Below are positions 25,093 to 38,226 of a stretch of DNA of 64,000 nucleotides, piece by piece; the stretch's first letter is position 1, and each line of letters starts with the position of its first letter. The translations under genes were made by a program, and so were the position numbers. The notes beneath the pieces were generated by a model. That model did not search any database and was not told the DNA's origin. It was given only the letters and a program-made list of their open reading frames with translations. This stretch comes from a virus, in IMG/VR virus record IMGVR_UViG_3300027126_000006; one strand, written 5' to 3'.

Positions 25093-26408
25093 TTGATATC
25101 CTTAGATTTGTCAGCAACATTCTTGTCGTCACGGAATTCAACAAACACGGGAAGAAACAAAGAATCTAGACCTGTACGCTTGTCGGTGATTCGGGCATTG
25201 TACTTGACGGCAACGATCCGTCCAACGTCAGCACGAGTAATAGCCATACGATCAGCATCACTAAAGCCCGTACCCAAACCGACTTTGACAAAACCGTCAG
25301 CAGACTCAACAACAAGAGCACCCATACGTCCAACATTCTTTCCAGTCCCTTCAACCCAATCAACGACTTTCAAATCACACTCCATCTCACCCTTGAACTT
25401 GATTTGGTGTTTGGATCTCTTGTTCTCCCAAATCATTTCTTTTGTCTTGAGGATGATACCTTCTTGACCGAGTGCAAGAAATTTCTCGAAGTACTTCTGC
25501 ACTTCATACACACCATTCACTGGATACGTTGGTGCCATTGATACTAGGAAAGCGATACCTGAACTGCTGGAATTGAGATCATTAATCGCTGCATGAAGTT
25601 TCTGTGCCCGGTCATCATAAGACACTTTATAGATCCCTTGCTCGAACGCATCAAGTGGAATAGCATCCCACACGGTTGCTCGAACCATCGACCCTTCTTG
25701 TTTAGATTGGGTTCCCTTAACAGCTTTGTTCAGGATTCCATTACCAGTCTTACGATCAAGAGTCTTACCAGCACTATCAACAACAAGAAGCTCGCCATCA
25801 AACACCACGTCGGATTTATAGAACGCAGCAAGGTGAATAAACGGAAGTGCGAATAGAGGATCGGCGATGTCAATCTCCTTTCCATTACGAGACCGAAACT
25901 GCACAGTGCCATTCTTAACGATAGCATTGAACCTCATACCATCCAGCTTGAGTTGGATATAGGCCGGAAATTTAACCTTATCGACTAATTTCTGATCATA
26001 AGCTGAGGCAAGCATACAGGGATACTCAGGAATCAATCCAGGCCACACGGCGTTCACAGTAGCCTCACTAACTCCACACTTTAGATCCTTGCTAATGATC
26101 CGCTCAATCACTTTCGCATCATCTTCATTAACGCTTGACAAGATGTACTTCAAGTGTTCGATTGCAGCATTGCCAGTCAGCTCTCGTTTTGAGAACTTCT
26201 GCAGCTCGTCGAGCGCCCACTCGAGACCAAACGTCATCTTGTAGGTTTGTGAGTACGAGGGGATCTTGCGAATGTAGAATTGTGTGAATGGATCCAGAGC
26301 AAGGAAGATAACCCTTTTCAGAGTATCATTGTCTTTGTTCTGGGTGAGGAAATCAATCTTGAAGTTACGGCTGCTGTTCGCAGCGAGCTGTTCAAAGATA
26401 TTGTTCAT
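25089..26408 (-). CDS. gp30: ATP-dependent DNA ligase
   Basis: QLKLDGMR, FDGEL, EGIILK, IKFK, OB fold SLFLPVF. Confidence 0.95.
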   Translation of the reverse strand: MNNIFEQLAANSSRNFKIDFLTQNKDNDTLKRVIFLALDPFTQFYIRKIPSYSQTYKMTFGLEWALDELQKFSKRELTGNAAIEHLKYILSSVNEDDAKVIERIISKDLKCGVSEATVNAVWPGLIPEYPCMLASAYDQKLVDKVKFPAYIQLKLDGMRFNAIVKNGTVQFRSRNGKEIDIADPLFALPFIHLAAFYKSDVVFDGELLVVDSAGKTLDRKTGNGILNKAVKGTQSKQEGSMVRATVWDAIPLDAFEQGIYKVSYDDRAQKLHAAINDLNSSSSGIAFLVSMAPTYPVNGVYEVQKYFEKFLALGQEGIILKTKEMIWENKRSKHQIKFKGEMECDLKVVDWVEGTGKNVGRMGALVVESADGFVKVGLGTGFSDADRMAITRADVGRIVAVKYNARITDKRTGLDSLFLPVFVEFRDDKNVADKSKDIK

Positions 26409-26517
26409 TGGCTTTCTTGTTCTTCAGTTTACGATTGTATCGGTTCTTCAGTGGTACTGATTTCGACTTGAAAGGGGTCTCGCGTTTGAATAGTATATTA
26501 TGAAATCGATTTTTCAT
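26392..26517 (-). CDS. Small basic protein (41 aa)
   Basis: Manual translation MKNRFHNILFKRETPFKSKSVPLKNRYNRKLKNKKANEQYL; GGAG SD. Confidence 0.55.
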   Translation of the reverse strand: MKNRFHNILFKRETPFKSKSVPLKNRYNRKLKNKKANEQYL

Positions 26518-30808: not shown

Positions 30809-31142
30809 GATCGTATCCCTTTTCTTTCAAGTGACTGAGGCTTGCGATGAAGGTAGTGTTTGGAAAGCGTTGTGATAGGACTTCCGATACCTCGTCATGA
30901 GACTTACCTTGAGCTAGAAAGTTCCCGGTGTTCTTATCGTAAACGAAAAACGACCCTTCATACTTCTCGATAACAATCTCGGTTTCGTTTACAGTTTGCT
31001 GTTCCGCCATCAATTCAAGATTCTTGAAGTAATCCTCTCTGAGGGATTGGATTAGTTTCTTAGCTTTATATTCGCGATAAATCCACCCAGCCTTGAAACC
31101 GATCAAGAGTGTAACCACAGCAGTTAATAGAATTTCCATCAT
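30795..31142 (-). CDS. Membrane-anchored hypothetical protein
   Basis: N-terminal TM helix; FLAQG motif. Confidence 0.6.
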   Translation of the reverse strand: MMEILLTAVVTLLIGFKAGWIYREYKAKKLIQSLREDYFKNLELMAEQQTVNETEIVIEKYEGSFFVYDKNTGNFLAQGKSHDEVSEVLSQRFPNTTFIASLSHLKEKGYDHESL

Positions 31143-32077
31143 GAGAATTTACACTCCCCCATCACCTCTGTCAAGCATGCCATTAGGTTTAACTCATGGT
31201 CTGCTACGAACGAAGCCTTGTATTGATAATCGGCTAGAATAAGAACCAACTGAGGGATACTGTGCTGATCGAGGAATGTAGAAGATCCTTCATAGAGATC
31301 ACGAAACACTCTTGAAGTATCTCCATCACTATTCATTGCAACCCACTTACGCACTTCTGTGAAGTTCTTTTCCTTCATCATCTTATATAGCTGACGATAA
31401 GAATCGCCGTTTAGATTGACGAAGATACCAGAATCGATCTTACCGGACACTGAGTACCGTTGGAGTTCATTAAGAATCCGTCGACCATCAGGAAAGTGCT
31501 TCTGCACAAGCTCAGCTACAACCTTCGTGTCGAATTCTACATTCTCCATTTTCAGGATGTTCACGACACGCTTAAAGAACAGTCCAGCGACTTTTACTTT
31601 CTCATCGCCAGGAATCTTGAAGTCAACGACTGCACACCTGCTATGCAGAGGATCGATGATTCGATTCTTGAAGTTACAAGTTAGGATGAACCTACAATTG
31701 TCAGCAAACTCTTCGATAAACGACCGAAGAGCTGGTTGTGTAGAGTTGGGATTAAGATAGTCTGCTTCATCGAGGATGACTACCTTCTTGGCATCAGTGA
31801 GGCTGATTGACGATGCGAATCCTTTAATCTTCGTTCGCAGTACATCAATACCTGATTCATCAGAGCCGTTGATGAACATATACTCTGCACCGATTTCATT
31901 ACACAGTGCTCGAGCTACTGTAGTCTTGCCTACGCCAGCAGTACCATGGAACAGAAAGTTTGGAAGTTCACCTGCTTCCACATACTCCCGAAAAGTCTTC
32001 TTGAGACCTTCCGGAAGAATGCAGTCGTCAATTGTTTGTGGTCTGTATTTTTCCGTCCAAATGAAATGTTCACTCAT
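31139..32077 (-). CDS. gp44: Clamp loader large subunit
   Basis: WTEKYRP, GTAGVGKTT, DEAD, LHSRC. Confidence 0.97.
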   Translation of the reverse strand: MSEHFIWTEKYRPQTIDDCILPEGLKKTFREYVEAGELPNFLFHGTAGVGKTTVARALCNEIGAEYMFINGSDESGIDVLRTKIKGFASSISLTDAKKVVILDEADYLNPNSTQPALRSFIEEFADNCRFILTCNFKNRIIDPLHSRCAVVDFKIPGDEKVKVAGLFFKRVVNILKMENVEFDTKVVAELVQKHFPDGRRILNELQRYSVSGKIDSGIFVNLNGDSYRQLYKMMKEKNFTEVRKWVAMNSDGDTSRVFRDLYEGSSTFLDQHSIPQLVLILADYQYKASFVADHELNLMACLTEVMGECKFS

Positions 32078-32108
32078 AATATAACTCCATCACAAAAACA
32101 ATATTATA

Positions 32109-32771
32109 TCAGAAATCAAATGTAGAGTCAAGTTCGATTGCAGCAAAGTACACGAGCTTTTGAGATGTGGAAGCGAACCTGCTAATCTTCTTGCCACCGA
32201 TGTCAACAATGTAATCGCCCGGCATCATCTTCATATTCTCAATCTTAAAGTTGACTTTGAATGATTTGTCGGTTGTACCAATTTCCGAACTAAAGCTATT
32301 GCCTGTTGGATTGGTCTTATCTCCAACAGCAACACTGATTACCTTACCGTCTCCTACTACCGAGAAGTCAGATACACGAAGGATTGAAGATACTCGTTGA
32401 ATTTGGCTGAGCATCTGACTTGATAGATTAAATGAGATATCGGGTGTAGGAAACTGCTTAATGCTTGGTACAACAGTAAGCACAGATTGACTAGCAGCAA
32501 AGTATCGAACACTGTTCTTCCCTTCATAGATGGTTACATATTTATCGTTGAAGTCCAATTCCGGTGAATCAAACAGAGACATAGCTCCGAGGAACTCATT
32601 CAAATCGTAGATGCCAAAGTCTGTTGGGAATGTCTCAACAATGGTGGCTTCGCTGATGATGTTCTTGCCAGATGAAATTGTAGTAAGTTTTGATCCTGGT
32701 TTGATTGTTAGGTTGCTGTTGATGTTAGCAAAGTTCTTAAAAATTGCTAGTGTATCTTTCGATAGTTTCAT
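32109..32771 (-). CDS. gp45: Sliding clamp
   Basis: MKLSKDTLAIFKNFANIN, FGIYDLNEFL; synteny. Confidence 0.95.
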   Translation of the reverse strand: MKLSKDTLAIFKNFANINSNLTIKPGSKLTTISSGKNIISEATIVETFPTDFGIYDLNEFLGAMSLFDSPELDFNDKYVTIYEGKNSVRYFAASQSVLTVVPSIKQFPTPDISFNLSSQMLSQIQRVSSILRVSDFSVVGDGKVISVAVGDKTNPTGNSFSSEIGTTDKSFKVNFKIENMKMMPGDYIVDIGGKKISRFASTSQKLVYFAAIELDSTFDF

Positions 32772-32779
32772 AGTGTATC

Positions 32780-33301
32780 TCACTTGTTGTGGTATTTTGC
32801 TTCATCAGGCTTTGCTTGGCCCGACTTATCAAATCCATACGACCCATTATATTCATGCATCATCTCAGCATTGAAGCTGAGGTACTGTCCGATCCGTGTT
32901 CCTTGTTTGATCTTGGCAGGCCCAACAGTTACATGAAGGACGCCAGCCATTGTACCATGGTAACCTGAATCATACAACCCCGATGTTAGATATAGACCGT
33001 TGCGATTTAGAGTCGACCTGGTGATCACCCACCCAGCTTCATTCTCTCCGACTTTGATGATGTTCTCCATTACAACTTCATAGTGACCAATCTCGAGATA
33101 AAAATACCCATCTTTATCTGCAATCAACTCACGGCCACCACGATGTTTTTTATGTTCATTCGAAATCTCGAAAATATTCTCATCGTTAATTTTAAACACT
33201 TTACCTAAACGTAGATCTACAGCATTAGGCTGCACATCTTCATTCTGAACTTCCGTGAGAGAAGATTTAGAATTAGGTCCCATAATATGTTTCATGCTCA
33301 C
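32780..33301 (-). CDS. dut: Trimeric dUTPase-family protein
   Basis: AVDL, RSTLNRNG, GLYDSGYHG, RIGQ, YNGSYG; no dCTP-deaminase catalytic Glu after motif 3. Confidence 0.75.
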   Translation of the reverse strand: MSMKHIMGPNSKSSLTEVQNEDVQPNAVDLRLGKVFKINDENIFEISNEHKKHRGGRELIADKDGYFYLEIGHYEVVMENIIKVGENEAGWVITRSTLNRNGLYLTSGLYDSGYHGTMAGVLHVTVGPAKIKQGTRIGQYLSFNAEMMHEYNGSYGFDKSGQAKPDEAKYHNK

Positions 33302-33882
33302 TCCTTTACTAAGGCAACTGTTTGTAAAATTTTATGCATCTCTTGTACTGCTAGTTGGTTATACTGATCCAGTGTTAGATCGACATTGTTAATGATGCTG
33401 TGACACAGTTCATCAGGGAACTCAGTCTCTGTTACATGGCCATCAAATGCCACGCCTCCTCGTTTGATCTTAACAATGATTCCATCAAGTCGTTTGGTGA
33501 TTGATTCCAGTTCATTATGAAACCGCAAGTCAGTGATGCACCAAATCCCTGTACGATCTCGATTGATAGTATCTTCCACATATCTAACAAACTGCTGTTC
33601 GTCAAATGATCGCATCATCATTCCAATCTCGCGAACAACACGTCGACCATCAACAGAATGAGTTAGGTATCCTGGAAGTTGGTAGTCAACTTTCGTTCGC
33701 TTGAATGCATCATATTGTTCTTCGGTTACAAGATCGAAGATACGAGACACCTCGATTTTGATTGGATCAGCATATGCAATCTTACGCACTTGCAGTTGAG
33801 GAAAGGCATCTTTTACAGCCCTGTAAAACTGGTCTTTACCAGATCCTTTTGCTCCATGTAATCCAATCACCAACCCCATCAT
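33298..33882 (-). CDS. Deoxynucleoside monophosphate kinase (T4 gp1-like)
   Basis: GAKGSGKD, YADPIK, ITDLRFHNE, HVTE. Confidence 0.88.
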   Translation of the reverse strand: MMGLVIGLHGAKGSGKDQFYRAVKDAFPQLQVRKIAYADPIKIEVSRIFDLVTEEQYDAFKRTKVDYQLPGYLTHSVDGRRVVREIGMMMRSFDEQQFVRYVEDTINRDRTGIWCITDLRFHNELESITKRLDGIIVKIKRGGVAFDGHVTETEFPDELCHSIINNVDLTLDQYNQLAVQEMHKILQTVALVKE

Positions 33883-34751
33883 TCACCTCTACACAATTTG
33901 TCAACTAGTCCCATATTATAGTTGATGTCCTTTTGGCTTTCAACTTTATCTGATAGCGAAATATCAAAATCCACTTCTTTTTCAAATTTACCAAATCGAA
34001 GACCAGTTGGACTATTGTCGTATCGGATTCCAGCTAGTGCATGCCATACAGCAGTTGAGCTGTCCCACGAGAAGATGTGGTTATGATATTCGCGAACCAA
34101 AGAAATCTCACGTGGACCATCGGTCATTCCTAGACAATGAAACCTTTTCCGTGTGGCTGGCCCAAGAAGACCACGAGACTTCAGCTCTTCGAAGATAGCC
34201 CAACGAGACAGATACCGTTGCATCATATAACCATCATCTCGTACCTGATGAGGACTGTGCTTAGTTTCATTGACACCAAGAGCAATTGGACATGCGAGGA
34301 TAGAAACACCAATGTAATCTACATCTGGATTGTTGATAGCCCACTCAAACCCTTTCATCAGACCATCAAGATCTCCGAGAGATGATTGAGGGCAGAAGAA
34401 TGTTTTGAAACCAGCTTTCTTAAATTTCGGAGCAAGTTCTTGCGCCTTGTCTGTAGTTTTCATCCAATGGTGCTTCGGATAATCCGTCATCACAATAGAA
34501 TCAGCACTAACCAGTTTACCCATCTCGATCAACTTATCTGATGGGTACATATCAACCCCTCGCTTGAACATCTCGAATGCTGAGTTGTCAAGATGATAAA
34601 CTACATTTGGATTGTCTCGTTTGAGCTGAGCATAGAACTCACGATACTCCTTGTTCTCTTCTACAAGATGTGCTAGAAGAAGATGAACTGGATATGACCT
34701 CACGAGAGGAAGATATGATACAGGTACAATATGACAAAAATTAATCATCAC
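33879..34751 (-). CDS. TGT/DpdA-like guanine transglycosylase (subfamily unresolved)
   Basis: LDNSAFE (cf. TGT DSGGF), HCLG, SWDSS; located inside the folE/queD/queE cluster. Confidence 0.7.
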   Translation of the reverse strand: MMINFCHIVPVSYLPLVRSYPVHLLLAHLVEENKEYREFYAQLKRDNPNVVYHLDNSAFEMFKRGVDMYPSDKLIEMGKLVSADSIVMTDYPKHHWMKTTDKAQELAPKFKKAGFKTFFCPQSSLGDLDGLMKGFEWAINNPDVDYIGVSILACPIALGVNETKHSPHQVRDDGYMMQRYLSRWAIFEELKSRGLLGPATRKRFHCLGMTDGPREISLVREYHNHIFSWDSSTAVWHALAGIRYDNSPTGLRFGKFEKEVDFDISLSDKVESQKDINYNMGLVDKLCRGE

Positions 34752-35137
34752 ACAACCTCATAGTGTTTCACACAACCGTTTTCATTGTCCTCAGCAACGG
34801 AGATGATGAAACAACGATCGGGATATTTCGCATGAATGCTTTCAGCAATGTCGTCTGCAATCATCTCGCAGCTCTTGTAGTTTAGCTCGAGGATACCATC
34901 ATCAAAAAGACGCTCTAGCCAACGCTTAAACTGGATAAACTCCACATCACGATCGTCGTGGAACACATCAAGTTCAACACGGAAGTGGAAAATGTGTCGA
35001 TGTGGTGTTCCTAGAAAACTAACATCATCCCAGCCACCAGTCTTCAGTTTAGGATCTGTTGCTGCAGCTGGGTAGCAATGGATCCCTTCCTTTTGGAAGG
35101 TAACCCAAATACGATTACGTTTCACGATATAACTCAT
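34748..35137 (-). CDS. dpdL: QueD-paralog T-fold protein, DpdL-like (putative CDG decarboxylase)
   Basis: LGTPHRHIF fits the LxxxHRHxF signature as I recall it for DpdL; SCEMIA, EDNENG. Confidence 0.7.
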   Translation of the reverse strand: MSYIVKRNRIWVTFQKEGIHCYPAAATDPKLKTGGWDDVSFLGTPHRHIFHFRVELDVFHDDRDVEFIQFKRWLERLFDDGILELNYKSCEMIADDIAESIHAKYPDRCFIISVAEDNENGCVKHYEVV

Positions 35138-35149
35138 TACAATTCCTTT

Positions 35150-35836
35150 TTATTTTGGTAGACGCGCAATATTCAAAAATTCACGTCGAATGTCTGAATT
35201 GGCTTCAGCAAACACTCCTCGTGTTGATAGTGTGACAGTCGATGATCCTGTATCTTGAATACCTCGACTTTTAACACAGTAATGTGATGCATCAACATAT
35301 ACAGCAACATCAGGTGAGTCGGTGATGAAGCTAATAGTTTCACAGATCTGTTCTGTTAGACGCTCTTGCACTTGTGGTCGTTTAGCAAAGAACTCCACGA
35401 TTCGATTGAGCTTGGATAGACCAAGAACTTTCTTATGTGGAATGTATGCTACAGTTGCAAGACCATCAATTACTACAAAGTGATGTTCACAATTAGATTG
35501 TACATTAATATTACGCTCTAACACAAATGAATCTTTGTAATCCATCTTGTTGTCGATTGCAGTACATTTTGGAAACTTTGAGTAGTCCAATCCCCAAAAG
35601 ATTTCATTGACATACATTTTTGCAACACGGTTGGGTGTGTCGATCAACGAGTCGTCAGTGAGATCCAATCCTAGGATTTCCATGATCTTAGTAAAGTGAG
35701 GAACAATCTCTTTGATCTTTGCTTCAGAAGAAGCAGACACCATATCAGTGATTGGCGTTTCGATACCTTTAGATACTAGGTGACGATGGACTGCCATACC
35801 AAGTTCGGCATTACTCTTATGTGCTGGATGTGACAT
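35150..35836 (-). CDS. folE: GTP cyclohydrolase I
   Basis: TPNRVAKM, CEHH, GLSKLNR, PQVQERL, HYCVKSRG. Confidence 0.97.
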   Translation of the reverse strand: MSHPAHKSNAELGMAVHRHLVSKGIETPITDMVSASSEAKIKEIVPHFTKIMEILGLDLTDDSLIDTPNRVAKMYVNEIFWGLDYSKFPKCTAIDNKMDYKDSFVLERNINVQSNCEHHFVVIDGLATVAYIPHKKVLGLSKLNRIVEFFAKRPQVQERLTEQICETISFITDSPDVAVYVDASHYCVKSRGIQDTGSSTVTLSTRGVFAEANSDIRREFLNIARLPK

Positions 35837-35849
35837 TTTTATTTCCTAT

Positions 35850-35917
35850 CTTGACCATTCAGGTTCGTGTGTAGTATCGCAGAGGTGGAATGGTCAAGGA
35901 CGGACCCTACGATACTA
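35850..35917 (-). ncRNA. H-type pseudoknot abutting the folE ribosome-binding site
   Basis: Two interleaved 11-bp stems: 35850-35860/35888-35898 (perfect) and 35872-35882/35907-35917 (one G-U on minus). Confidence 0.7.
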
Positions 35918-35921
35918 TGAA

Positions 35922-36218
35922 TCATTTCTTCGGTGGTTTAGGAGGAAGGTTGGGATATGTACCCCAAGGAACCTTCATCCAATCATCTAAACTAATATTT
36001 TGAATTGGATCTTCAATCCACATTTTAGATATACAATAGTAGCAAAATTTATCCCAGATGAACATTCTAACTTTCGTATGATCGTCGTCGAATGCACCTG
36101 CCTCAGTCATCCAAGTGTGAGATGGGATCTCACGAACATATAGGTTAGCTTTGATCCCTTCTACTATACATTGAATTTTGTCAGAAGACAACTGTCCCAT
36201 TACATTTTCTCCCACCAA
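35922..36218 (-). CDS. Hypothetical protein in the deazaguanine cluster
   Basis: Trp-rich ORF, probable start at 36200. Confidence 0.55.
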   Translation of the reverse strand: MVGENVMGQLSSDKIQCIVEGIKANLYVREIPSHTWMTEAGAFDDDHTKVRMFIWDKFCYYCISKMWIEDPIQNISLDDWMKVPWGTYPNLPPKPPKK

Positions 36219-36649
36219 AAGTCAAAATACCTCTTCTCCAGTGTGCGAGTGAATGGGGTACCAAAGTAATGGTCAACTCCCATCTTCACGTCCGTGTTGT
36301 GAAGGAGTGTTGCAAGGGATGTATGACAGAAGATCTGAGATGTGTTGCACACCCATTGAACTGTCTTACCGCTATCGATTAGGTCATCTACAACCAAGAT
36401 CCTAAAGAACTTTTCACTCAAGTTTTCAAAGTACTGGTATAAGTTCAGATCAGTAGTAACACCATCTCGTGTAGATAAGTTAAGCATTGTTGCCGGGATG
36501 CCCATCTTATGGGATAACGCTACTGCTGGAATACATCCACCTCGAGTCAACCCTACGATGATATCAAACTTTCGTGATCCAATATTTTCGACGATTGTAT
36601 TGATGTCCCTTGTAAACCTTTCAAAAGTATAAAGAATGTGGTCCATCAC
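36200..36649 (-). CDS. Type I (purine-like) phosphoribosyltransferase
   Basis: GLTRGG, PRPP loop ILVVDDLIDSGKT, C-terminal DFWWE. Confidence 0.88.
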   Translation of the reverse strand: MMDHILYTFERFTRDINTIVENIGSRKFDIIVGLTRGGCIPAVALSHKMGIPATMLNLSTRDGVTTDLNLYQYFENLSEKFFRILVVDDLIDSGKTVQWVCNTSQIFCHTSLATLLHNTDVKMGVDHYFGTPFTRTLEKRYFDFWWEKM

Positions 36650-37164
36650 TGATCACCAAACAGATCTTCGTTCCACTCTCGATGACCTTCGCGGAAAGCC
36701 ATATTGGCTTGAGTCTCTCGAACTTCTACTCGGAAGCACCACAACCGCTCGGCTTCTCCAGGGCCCCAATAGTCTGGGATGTACACTCCATTGACAAACT
36801 TATATAGTTGATCTGCCAGTCCTTCACACCCAAGCCTCGGGAGGATAGTTAGCTTAGCCATCTTCTTTTCTTGAAGGAGCAAGTAAGTTTCTAGCTCAGG
36901 ATCGTCTTCTGCCACAAGTAGTGTATGATCAAACTGATCTTGAAGGATCTCTTTGAGGTCTTTAAGACCACCATAGTCTGCTGCCCAATTGCGAACATCG
37001 AGATCGTTAGTGCCAAAGTAAAACTTCATCGAAAAACTATAACCGTGAATCAGGTTGCAATGCGAGTCTGCTCTCCACTGCCTATAAGCACAAGGAAATG
37101 CATCCACATACTCCTTTGTGCTGACAAACTTATATGTTACTGGTTGAACCATATTGCACTCCAT
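36646..37164 (-). CDS. queD: 6-carboxy-5,6,7,8-tetrahydropterin synthase
   Basis: HCNLIHGY, DYGGLK, FDHTLL, VEVRET. Confidence 0.9.
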   Translation of the reverse strand: MECNMVQPVTYKFVSTKEYVDAFPCAYRQWRADSHCNLIHGYSFSMKFYFGTNDLDVRNWAADYGGLKDLKEILQDQFDHTLLVAEDDPELETYLLLQEKKMAKLTILPRLGCEGLADQLYKFVNGVYIPDYWGPGEAERLWCFRVEVRETQANMAFREGHREWNEDLFGDQ

Positions 37165-38042
37165 TATTTACCAATCGCGTTTCCAAAAATATGTACATGA
37201 GCTCGAGTAGAATAGTTGAACCCTCGCTCGATTGATTGTTCGGCGATCGCCGCTTCTGTAACTTTCAATCCTTCAAGAGTGCCTCCAATACCCATAATCC
37301 AAATATCCCAGTTAACGTCAACTTCTCGGAATAAGGAGATTACTTCGTCAAGCTCATCCCATGCAGCTCGACTACCATTGACGACAAACTTAAGCTGTCC
37401 TTTCGAACTCGCCTTCATATACTTAGCAACATTCTCCGGTTTGATAGCCTTACTTCTCTTCTCTCCTGCTACATTCCATAGTTTAGGAGAAATCGACCAC
37501 ATCCATTCAACACCATGCTCATTACGCAATTCCTGGATTAGGTTGAATAGAGGTTCACTAAGAGTTTGAGTGCCATTTGACTCAACAGTAATGAACTTTG
37601 GAATGTTACCTCGATCAATGAATTCAGTTAGCAGCTCAACAATTGCTTTCTGATTCTGTTTCATTAGAGGCTCGCCACCAGTGATACAAAGATGTGTTTC
37701 TTGACCACTTCGTGCATGTTTAAACTTACCAGTAGGAAGTTTACTTTCTAGCTCATCGACTGCTTCGACAGCAGTCTTATCATGCATCAGGTGTTTAAAC
37801 CTCGAGCTCCAAGTGTATGATGAATCACATCCCTTTTCGAATACAGGGAGATCCTCTACACGAGTGATGTTGCTAATATCGATCTTCTCGTATGGAAGAT
37901 CCCATGTATCTGGTTCAGTGGGACAGCTCTGCCCAAAACCATCGCACTGAAGATTACAAAGAAAGAATCTAATCCACAACGACGATACACCACAATACAT
38001 ACCCTCCCCTTGTGGGGAGTAAAAGGTCTCAGAATATTTCAC
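37164..38042 (-). CDS. queE: 7-carboxy-7-deazaguanine synthase (radical SAM)
   Basis: FYSPQGEG, CNLQC...GCDS, ITGGEP, ESNGT, SISPKL. Confidence 0.93.
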   Translation of the reverse strand: MKYSETFYSPQGEGMYCGVSSLWIRFFLCNLQCDGFGQSCPTEPDTWDLPYEKIDISNITRVEDLPVFEKGCDSSYTWSSRFKHLMHDKTAVEAVDELESKLPTGKFKHARSGQETHLCITGGEPLMKQNQKAIVELLTEFIDRGNIPKFITVESNGTQTLSEPLFNLIQELRNEHGVEWMWSISPKLWNVAGEKRSKAIKPENVAKYMKASSKGQLKFVVNGSRAAWDELDEVISLFREVDVNWDIWIMGIGGTLEGLKVTEAAIAEQSIERGFNYSTRAHVHIFGNAIGK

Positions 38043-38218: not shown

Positions 38219-38226
38219 TATTTATA
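38219..38226 (-). promoter_or_regulatory. Late promoter TATAAATA upstream of the deazaguanine cluster
   Basis: Exact consensus in a short intergenic gap, followed by GAGG SD. Confidence 0.65.

Follow-up and report, generated by a model that had tools for sequence, protein, structure and literature searches.

Modification of DNA with 7-deazaguanine is a recently described anti-restriction strategy of phages. To our knowledge, nothing is known about how phages regulate 7-deazaguanine synthesis, and the literature that we searched on phage 7-deazaguanine pathways made no mention of any riboswitch. Phages of the T4 type use RNA operators (gene 32, gene 43 and RegA); the pseudoknot of the gene 32 operator lies far upstream and nucleates cooperative binding of gp32 on a long, unstructured, AU-rich tract. 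In layout, the described RNAs closest to the leader reported here are the preQ1-I type III and preQ1-II riboswitches. In preQ1-I riboswitches an unpaired UC or AC lies directly before the 3′ strand of P1, with its C acting as the specificity base (PMC11625349), and in type III members four to five conserved adenines lie directly before P2 (PMC10622847).

The leader precedes folE in an uncultured T4-like phage, of which we analyzed a stretch of 64,000 nucleotides (hereafter, the window) that includes the T4-type replication genes gp45 and gp44. Encoded on the minus strand (35150..35836), folE specifies a type IA GTP cyclohydrolase I of 228 amino acids (Pfam PF01227, E = 1.7e-56), and near it lie a radical-SAM gene (a weak match), a PTPS/QueD-fold gene, a phosphoribosyltransferase gene, a QueD paralogue, a dNMP kinase gene and a dCTP-deaminase-fold gene. 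The QueD paralogue (129 amino acids; 34748-35137, minus strand) carries the peptide LGTPHRHIF, an instance of the LxxxHRHxF signature that has been assigned to DpdL, which in phages with 7-deazaguanine DNA is the proposed CDG decarboxylase (PMC10516641). This signature points to 7-deazaguanine as the product of the predicted pathway.

Between the ATG of folE (35836-35834) and the stop codon (35924-35922) of an upstream 98-amino-acid ORF that matches no Pfam family (35922..36218, minus strand) lie 85 nucleotides of the minus strand, which form the largest inter-ORF gap across 31139 to 38042, as a preliminary description of this DNA had claimed for the operon. Also borne out, by inspection of the sequence and by a repeat finder, were the two interleaved 11-base-pair stems that it had placed in this gap, which occupy 35917-35850 of the minus strand in the arm order S1a, S2a, S1b, S2b. 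The arms of stem 1 (S1; 35917-35907 and 35882-35872) form 11 pairs, of which the single G-U favors the minus strand, as was first noted; the stem grows by two pairs to 13 (35917-35905 with 35884-35872), and its two G-U pairs then favor the folE-sense RNA. The arms of stem 2 (S2; 35898-35888 and 35860-35850) are perfectly complementary over 11 pairs. The 3′ strand of the extended S1 (13 nucleotides, 35872..35884) was located by sequence, by the repeat finder and by anchored helix extraction. Connecting the strands are the segments UCCGUC (L1; 35904-35899), CAC (L2; 35887-35885) and a third of 11 nucleotides (L3; 35871-35861). The end of S2 at 35850 falls 2 nucleotides before the folE Shine-Dalgarno (SD) sequence AGGA (35847-35844), which agrees with the original reading; the SD in turn lies 7 nucleotides before the ATG, and 13 nucleotides separate S2 from the ATG.

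When all 11-base-pair stems with at most one G-U and a span of at most 70 nucleotides were listed by script, an interleaved pair occurred at one site in the whole window, on the minus strand only, and at none in 20 Markov-1 random sequences of 64 kb. The arm sequences of neither stem recurred above chance elsewhere in the window. Two other features of the vicinity deserve mention. An AUG within the 3′ strand of S2 starts a 13-codon frame (35858-35817, minus strand) that runs across the folE start in a different reading frame; no SD precedes it, and the relatives do not conserve it. Inside the 3′ end of the 98-amino-acid ORF, at 35941-35980 (minus strand), lies an 11-nucleotide inverted repeat with one mismatch and a CCUUCCUCC anti-SD-like run, which is absent from the homologous ORF ends of two related loci (L019 and L024).

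Because no sigma-70-like or late-type promoter was found in the 85-nucleotide gap, and because the closest TATAAATA box, the T4 late-promoter consensus, lies at 38219-38226 (minus strand), in a 185-nucleotide gap upstream of the radical-SAM (QueE-like) gene, the leader of the window is probably internal to a polycistronic mRNA. Six such boxes occur in the window, compared with 2.45 expected, and the one at 38219-38226 is a possible promoter of the whole deazaguanine operon.

Twelve other distinct leaders, all from uncultured phage contigs in IMG/VR and JGI metagenomes, share the core of the window leader, giving 13 in total. These 12 precede folE genes whose products are at least 76% identical to FolE of the window; although about 120 close FolE proteins were found, exact copies of the window protein among them, the family was counted on the 13 leaders. 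Among cultured phages, BLAST returned no FolE more than 58% identical and no DNA that matched the leader. No further members came from another FolE query in IMG/VR, from a GTDB scan or from two exact-pattern scans, and a third pattern scan yielded one, L325 (L325:6428-6560, minus strand).

The core common to these leaders runs from the 5′ strand of S1 through UCCU(U)G, a pyrimidine run and UC[C/U]AC to the 3′ strand of S1, and then through an A/C-rich segment ending in AAYCYGA to a purine run that is the SD. S2 joins the pyrimidine loop to the SD region, so that the two helices interleave. The sequences of both helices vary among phages while their complementarity is kept, whereas the unpaired blocks UCCU, CAC and AAYCUGA are invariant. 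Each block can be traced in the window: L1 (35899..35904) contains part of the UCCU block; L2 (35885..35887) is part of the UC[C/U]AC block, found in 13 of the 13 leaders; and L3 (35861..35871) ends in AAYCU, which precedes S2 in all leaders. Likewise, the 3′ half of the S2 5′ strand (CCAUUC, within 35888..35898) corresponds by homology to the relatives' anti-SD loop segment, and the first six bases of the S2 3′ strand (GAAUGG, within 35850..35860) align to their SD-containing GAAAGG.

Three architectures are built on this core. Type A (six leaders, about 45–70 nucleotides) has a 5′ hairpin, S1 of GGUGG/CCACC and S2 of CCUUUC/GAAAGG, both helices being identical in all six copies; S1 includes the AC of the CAC block among its paired bases, and the 5′ hairpin, which overlaps the 5′ strand of S1 by 3–5 bases, could act as an anti-knot alternative. 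Type B (six leaders, about 105 nucleotides) begins with a two-tier 5′ hairpin that has a conserved internal loop, continues through a CCA(A)GG linker and then has an S1 of 4–6 base pairs, CAC, an A-rich third loop and an S2 of 4–8 base pairs. One coordinated indel suggests a candidate third helix in type B, between CAAGG of the 5′ linker and CCUUG of the loop. The third form is that of the window, which has no 5′ hairpin, a far longer S1 (13 base pairs) and S2 (11 base pairs), and about 10 extra bases that shift the real SD past S2, and which is a derived, atypical form of the leader. In the relatives, the 3′ strand of S2 itself includes the SD core (for example, GAAAGG followed by A, or GAAGG followed by AG). 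Types A and B have a box resembling a late promoter (TATAAGTA or ATAAATA) a short distance upstream, and these leaders therefore look like true 5′ UTRs. As a separate observation, in L001, L009, L012, L103 and L106 a sigma-70-like promoter lies upstream of the type A leader, about 60–110 nucleotides before folE, and is followed directly by a 7-base-pair hairpin with seven U and then by TATAAGTA; the hairpin and U-run resemble a terminator, or else a very short early transcript, placed before the putative late-type promoter.

The three architectures were not all in register in the covariance-model alignments (A4 and A6), so we extracted the helices by anchored rules and applied the pair counter to the seven in-register rows only. 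Among 10 representatives, S1 has an invariant G-C closing pair, and each of its positions 2–4 is occupied by three to four Watson-Crick pair types; in S2, pairs 1 and 2 are invariant, and position 4 is U-A, C-G or A-U, with A-U common to the window and L105. In addition, the U-run of the loop and the A-run of the tail change length jointly (2, 3 or 4). In duplex energy, cognate partners outperformed permuted ones (6 of 20,000 for S1; 0 of 20,000 for S2). In the seven in-register rows, 97.1% of cells were paired compared with 78.8% in shuffles, a level that none of the 500 attained, and the covariation score was 0.562 compared with 0.182 in shuffles (reached by 0 of 500) and at most 0.267 in slid controls, in an alignment whose building model included S1, which favors S1, and did not include S2. 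RNAalifold, given the raw MAFFT alignment of type B, recovered S1 and the upstream 5′ hairpin unaided. Nested MFE z-scores, which score nested folds and not the knot, were unremarkable (-1.3 for the window; 0 to +1.3 for L015 and L097).

A covariance model made from four type B leaders found six of six type A leaders at 23–28 bits, which supports homology of the two types. The window leader scored only 11 bits under the type B model because of its insertions, and its assignment to the family rests on the common blocks and registers. Among these phages the adjacent folE genes have mean identities of 0.43 at third codon positions and 0.36 at fourfold sites. With synonymous sites of folE thus near saturation, the invariant unpaired blocks have been kept by selection and do not simply reflect a recent shared ancestor, indicating that the leader is under purifying selection. 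The preliminary description had proposed an H-type pseudoknot at the folE ribosome-binding site and had set an absence of conservation or covariation in relatives beforehand as a ground for refuting it; in the homologous leaders both helices are kept through compensatory changes, and the proposal gained in weight. Together, these comparisons, which draw on 13 distinct leaders with few independent changes, support a real, conserved H-type RNA pseudoknot at the folE ribosome-binding region.

The distribution of the leader ties it to one enzymatic step. It always precedes a GTP cyclohydrolase I gene; two complete, terminally repeated phage genomes (222,825 and 202,272 bp) each have one copy, at folE; and it was absent from about 250 other loci searched. 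In one case the gene that follows is a non-homologous folE2: the leader of L325/L336 differs from that of L097 by a single base up to the SD (T to A, in the loop of the P0 hairpin), and the gene after it encodes FolE2 (PF02649, E = 1.7e-59), a type IB cyclohydrolase that is not homologous to FolE. The closest relatives of this FolE2 (96–98% identical) have no leader. Because a near-identical leader serves both genes, it behaves as a cassette linked to the cyclohydrolase step rather than to a single protein. One upstream ORF (ending in ...YEELV) is in fact followed by three arrangements, a presence/absence polymorphism: leader and folE (L097, L098 and L105), leader and folE2 (L336), or folE2 without a leader (L337-L341). 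Six of 19 close lineages lack the leader, and their folE abuts or overlaps the upstream ORF; in L019, L024 and L100 the ORF that abuts folE has a C-terminal peptide similar to that of the 98-amino-acid ORF of the window. The leader is therefore dispensable, with leaderless lineages coupling folE to the upstream ORF instead.

Two further elements came up during these searches. At 26406-26451 (minus strand), before the start of the ATP-dependent DNA ligase gene, model R1 matched at 19.2 bits, but the match has only an A-rich CUGAAG tail in common with the leader, with no UCCU loop and no S1, and we judged it to be probably chance. More distant folE genes (64–67% identical), many on contigs of 100–520 kb, have a different conserved leader (L054-L080, L267, L272 and L275, about 60 nucleotides before the folE start), in which an ATAAATA box is followed by a small hairpin, its loop rich in A, and by a short element that allows pairing of UCC or ACC to GGA or GGU around an AAGGAAGG run.

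We infer that folE is controlled at translation, that a ligand exists and what that ligand is, and propose the following mechanism. The S1 hairpin bears the pyrimidine-rich loop, the 3′ part of which pairs with the purine run of the ribosome-binding site (S2), the H-type arrangement described above; closure of the knot would make the SD inaccessible to the 30S subunit, and translation of folE would fall. The three unpaired blocks (UCCU after the 5′ strand of S1, CAC before its 3′ strand and AAYCU before the 3′ strand of S2) are predicted to gather at the S1/S2 junction. Since the blocks do not vary even though the helix sequences do, a small molecule of the pathway most likely stabilizes the knot; 7-deazaguanine, CDG or a related purine-like base are candidates, and the leader would then be an OFF riboswitch that provides feedback on the GTP-consuming first step. 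We hold with middling confidence that the leader is an H-type pseudoknot which, when closed, sequesters the SD and lowers translation of the cyclohydrolase, and which is most likely stabilized by a metabolite of the pathway. More tentatively, it may constitute a new, phage-only riboswitch class that senses a 7-deazapurine produced by the phage pathway itself (7-deazaguanine, CDG or a nucleotide of either) and shuts off GTP cyclohydrolase I of either type. The leader is in any case a good candidate for a new riboswitch gating the entry of GTP into 7-deazaguanine DNA modification.

In the window this mechanism would take a modified form, since the AGGA lies outside S2 by 2 nucleotides, whereas the homologous 3′ strand of the relatives forms the SD core. 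Control there might come from steric hindrance just 5′ of the SD or from an alternative UCC/GGA pairing: the nested MFE structure of the window leader is the S2 hairpin extended by pairing of UCC (35904-35902) with GGA (35846-35844) of the SD, and the centroid is the S1 hairpin. A first loop of 6 nucleotides is, moreover, sterically tight for stems of 13 and 11 base pairs, and the stems of the window might alternate rather than coexist.

The invariant unpaired nucleotides would suit a protein site no less than a ligand pocket, and given the RNA operators of T4-type phages and the T4-type replication genes in the window, we considered whether the leader is a translational operator, at which a phage or host protein (a repressor or a pathway enzyme) recognizes the knot and stops synthesis of the cyclohydrolase. 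Autoregulation by the enzyme itself is argued against by the leaders that differ by one base and yet serve the unrelated FolE and FolE2, and a motif present once per genome does not serve a global repressor of the RegA kind. Nor does the leader have a long unstructured AU-rich tract like that of gene 32, and no candidate RNA-binding gene is linked to it. We therefore regard a protein operator as unlikely, if the strongest of the alternatives.

A knot that senses nothing, and that simply fixes cyclohydrolase translation at a low level or protects the 5′ end of the mRNA, seems slightly less probable again. The very long stems of the window (13 and 11 base pairs) do look locked rather than switchable, and in some lineages translational coupling takes the place of the leader. 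A pure attenuator, though, requires only the anti-SD pairing, which leaves the three invariant unpaired blocks, the second conserved helix and the two-tier hairpin of type B, with its conserved internal loop, unexplained.

The covariation backs both helices and would be expected equally if they coexisted or alternated, and S1 and S2 might thus be alternative hairpins of a two-state switch without a pseudoknot, the choice between them being made by co-transcriptional folding, temperature or ribosomes on the upstream ORF. The folds of the window leader fit such a switch, in that the nested MFE structure hides the SD and the centroid frees it, as does the overlap of 3–5 bases between the upstream hairpin and the S1 5′ strand in type A. 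In the relatives, however, S1 and S2 are only 4–8 base pairs long and 0–3 nucleotides apart, which is the layout of a coaxially stacked H-type knot, and each hairpin would be weak by itself, making a switch of this kind quite improbable. Finally, chance or a DNA-level element (a protein-binding palindrome or a recombination site) can be set aside as highly improbable: although the arms are inverted repeats in DNA also, the G-U pairs of both helices are compatible only with the folE-sense RNA and become A-C mismatches on the other strand, the interleaved pair is confined to the minus strand, the changes across phages are compensatory, and the position relative to the SD and start codon is fixed.

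A conserved RNA controlling the initial, GTP-consuming enzyme would be without precedent among described regulatory elements of this pathway. Binding of a deazapurine would make it a new aptamer fold for such ligands and a compact natural sensor, 45–110 nucleotides long, for such bases, and under the more tentative reading above it would let a virus meter the host GTP that it diverts into DNA hypermodification. The three nested forms of the motif, together with the two unrelated cyclohydrolases, make direct tests with purified RNA and reporters easy to design.

How far the leader resembles described RNAs can be judged family by family. The preliminary description had recognized no known riboswitch consensus, and our scans agree: with Rfam 15, nothing came near threshold in the window, the whole loci or leader stretches of 100–140 nucleotides, and the best sub-threshold scores (Mu-gpT-DE, 16.2 bits; gltS, 15.2 bits; SAM-II, 9.9 bits) were at chance level. 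Its analogy to the T4 gene 32 operator fared less well. Both are pseudoknots in gene leaders of T4-type phages, but the phage folE knot abuts or contains the SD and has no AU-rich tract, and with only 13 nucleotides from S2 to the ATG, and folE in place of a gene for a single-stranded-DNA-binding protein, the anatomy does not fit. SAM-II (RF00521) is likewise a classic H-type pseudoknot that includes the ribosome-binding site, and its third loop finds a resemblance in a GUUAAAC; the match, however, was confined to L097 (9.9 bits, E = 5.1, against a gathering score of 36), and there is no link to a SAM-related gene. THF-II, the 'folE motif' (PMC6800512), which acts on translation, shares only the position in a folE leader. 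It has a simple architecture (PMC6800512), whereas a pseudoknot is supported in the phage leaders, which matched no Rfam family, and its folE serves folate synthesis, whereas that of the phages sits in a 7-deazaguanine DNA-modification cluster.

The preQ1 families come closer. For preQ1-III (RF02680), Rfam gave no match in the window or in the leaders of relatives. PreQ1-II (RF01054; Lactobacillus rhamnosus and Streptococcus pneumoniae queT; PMC11625349) resembles the phage leader in having an optional 5′ hairpin followed by a pseudoknot, and in a last helix formed by an anti-SD loop segment with the SD; preQ1-II acts on translation only. It differs in being limited to Bacillota and in its gene association. 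Rfam gave no preQ1-II match, and the phage leaders have no embedded P4 hairpin before the SD strand such as marks the HLout knot of preQ1-II: the 7–22 nucleotides from the 3′ strand of S1 to the S2 segment contain no conserved helix.

PreQ1-I (RF00522) gave no match up to E = 10 in the window or in the type A and B leaders, including 100-nucleotide stretches. The loops of the phage leaders measure 12–24 nucleotides, compared with about 7–10 in preQ1-I; AAYCU precedes S2 in 13 of 13 phage leaders, where preQ1-I has a poly-A run; type B has an extra two-tier 5′ hairpin; and the phage leader is found in phages and would control folE, not que or transporter genes. No one pocket of the preQ1 kind suits every form, because S1 takes up the AC in type A. 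In type B and the window an AC lies just before the 3′ strand of the helix corresponding to P1: CAC stands ahead of the S1 3′ strand in the window, L097 and L105, and in four type B leaders its C is able to form the closing pair of S1. Type B has an A-rich third loop. Within preQ1-I the likeness is greatest to type III, as in the E. coli yhhQ leader (PMC10622847, PMC11625349), with which the phage leader shares the H-type fold, a short P1 with an invariant G-C pair at its top, membership in a 7-deazaguanine pathway and a pyrimidine-rich P1 hairpin loop whose 3′ part pairs with SD bases of the 3′ tail (AAGG, the SD core in the relatives).
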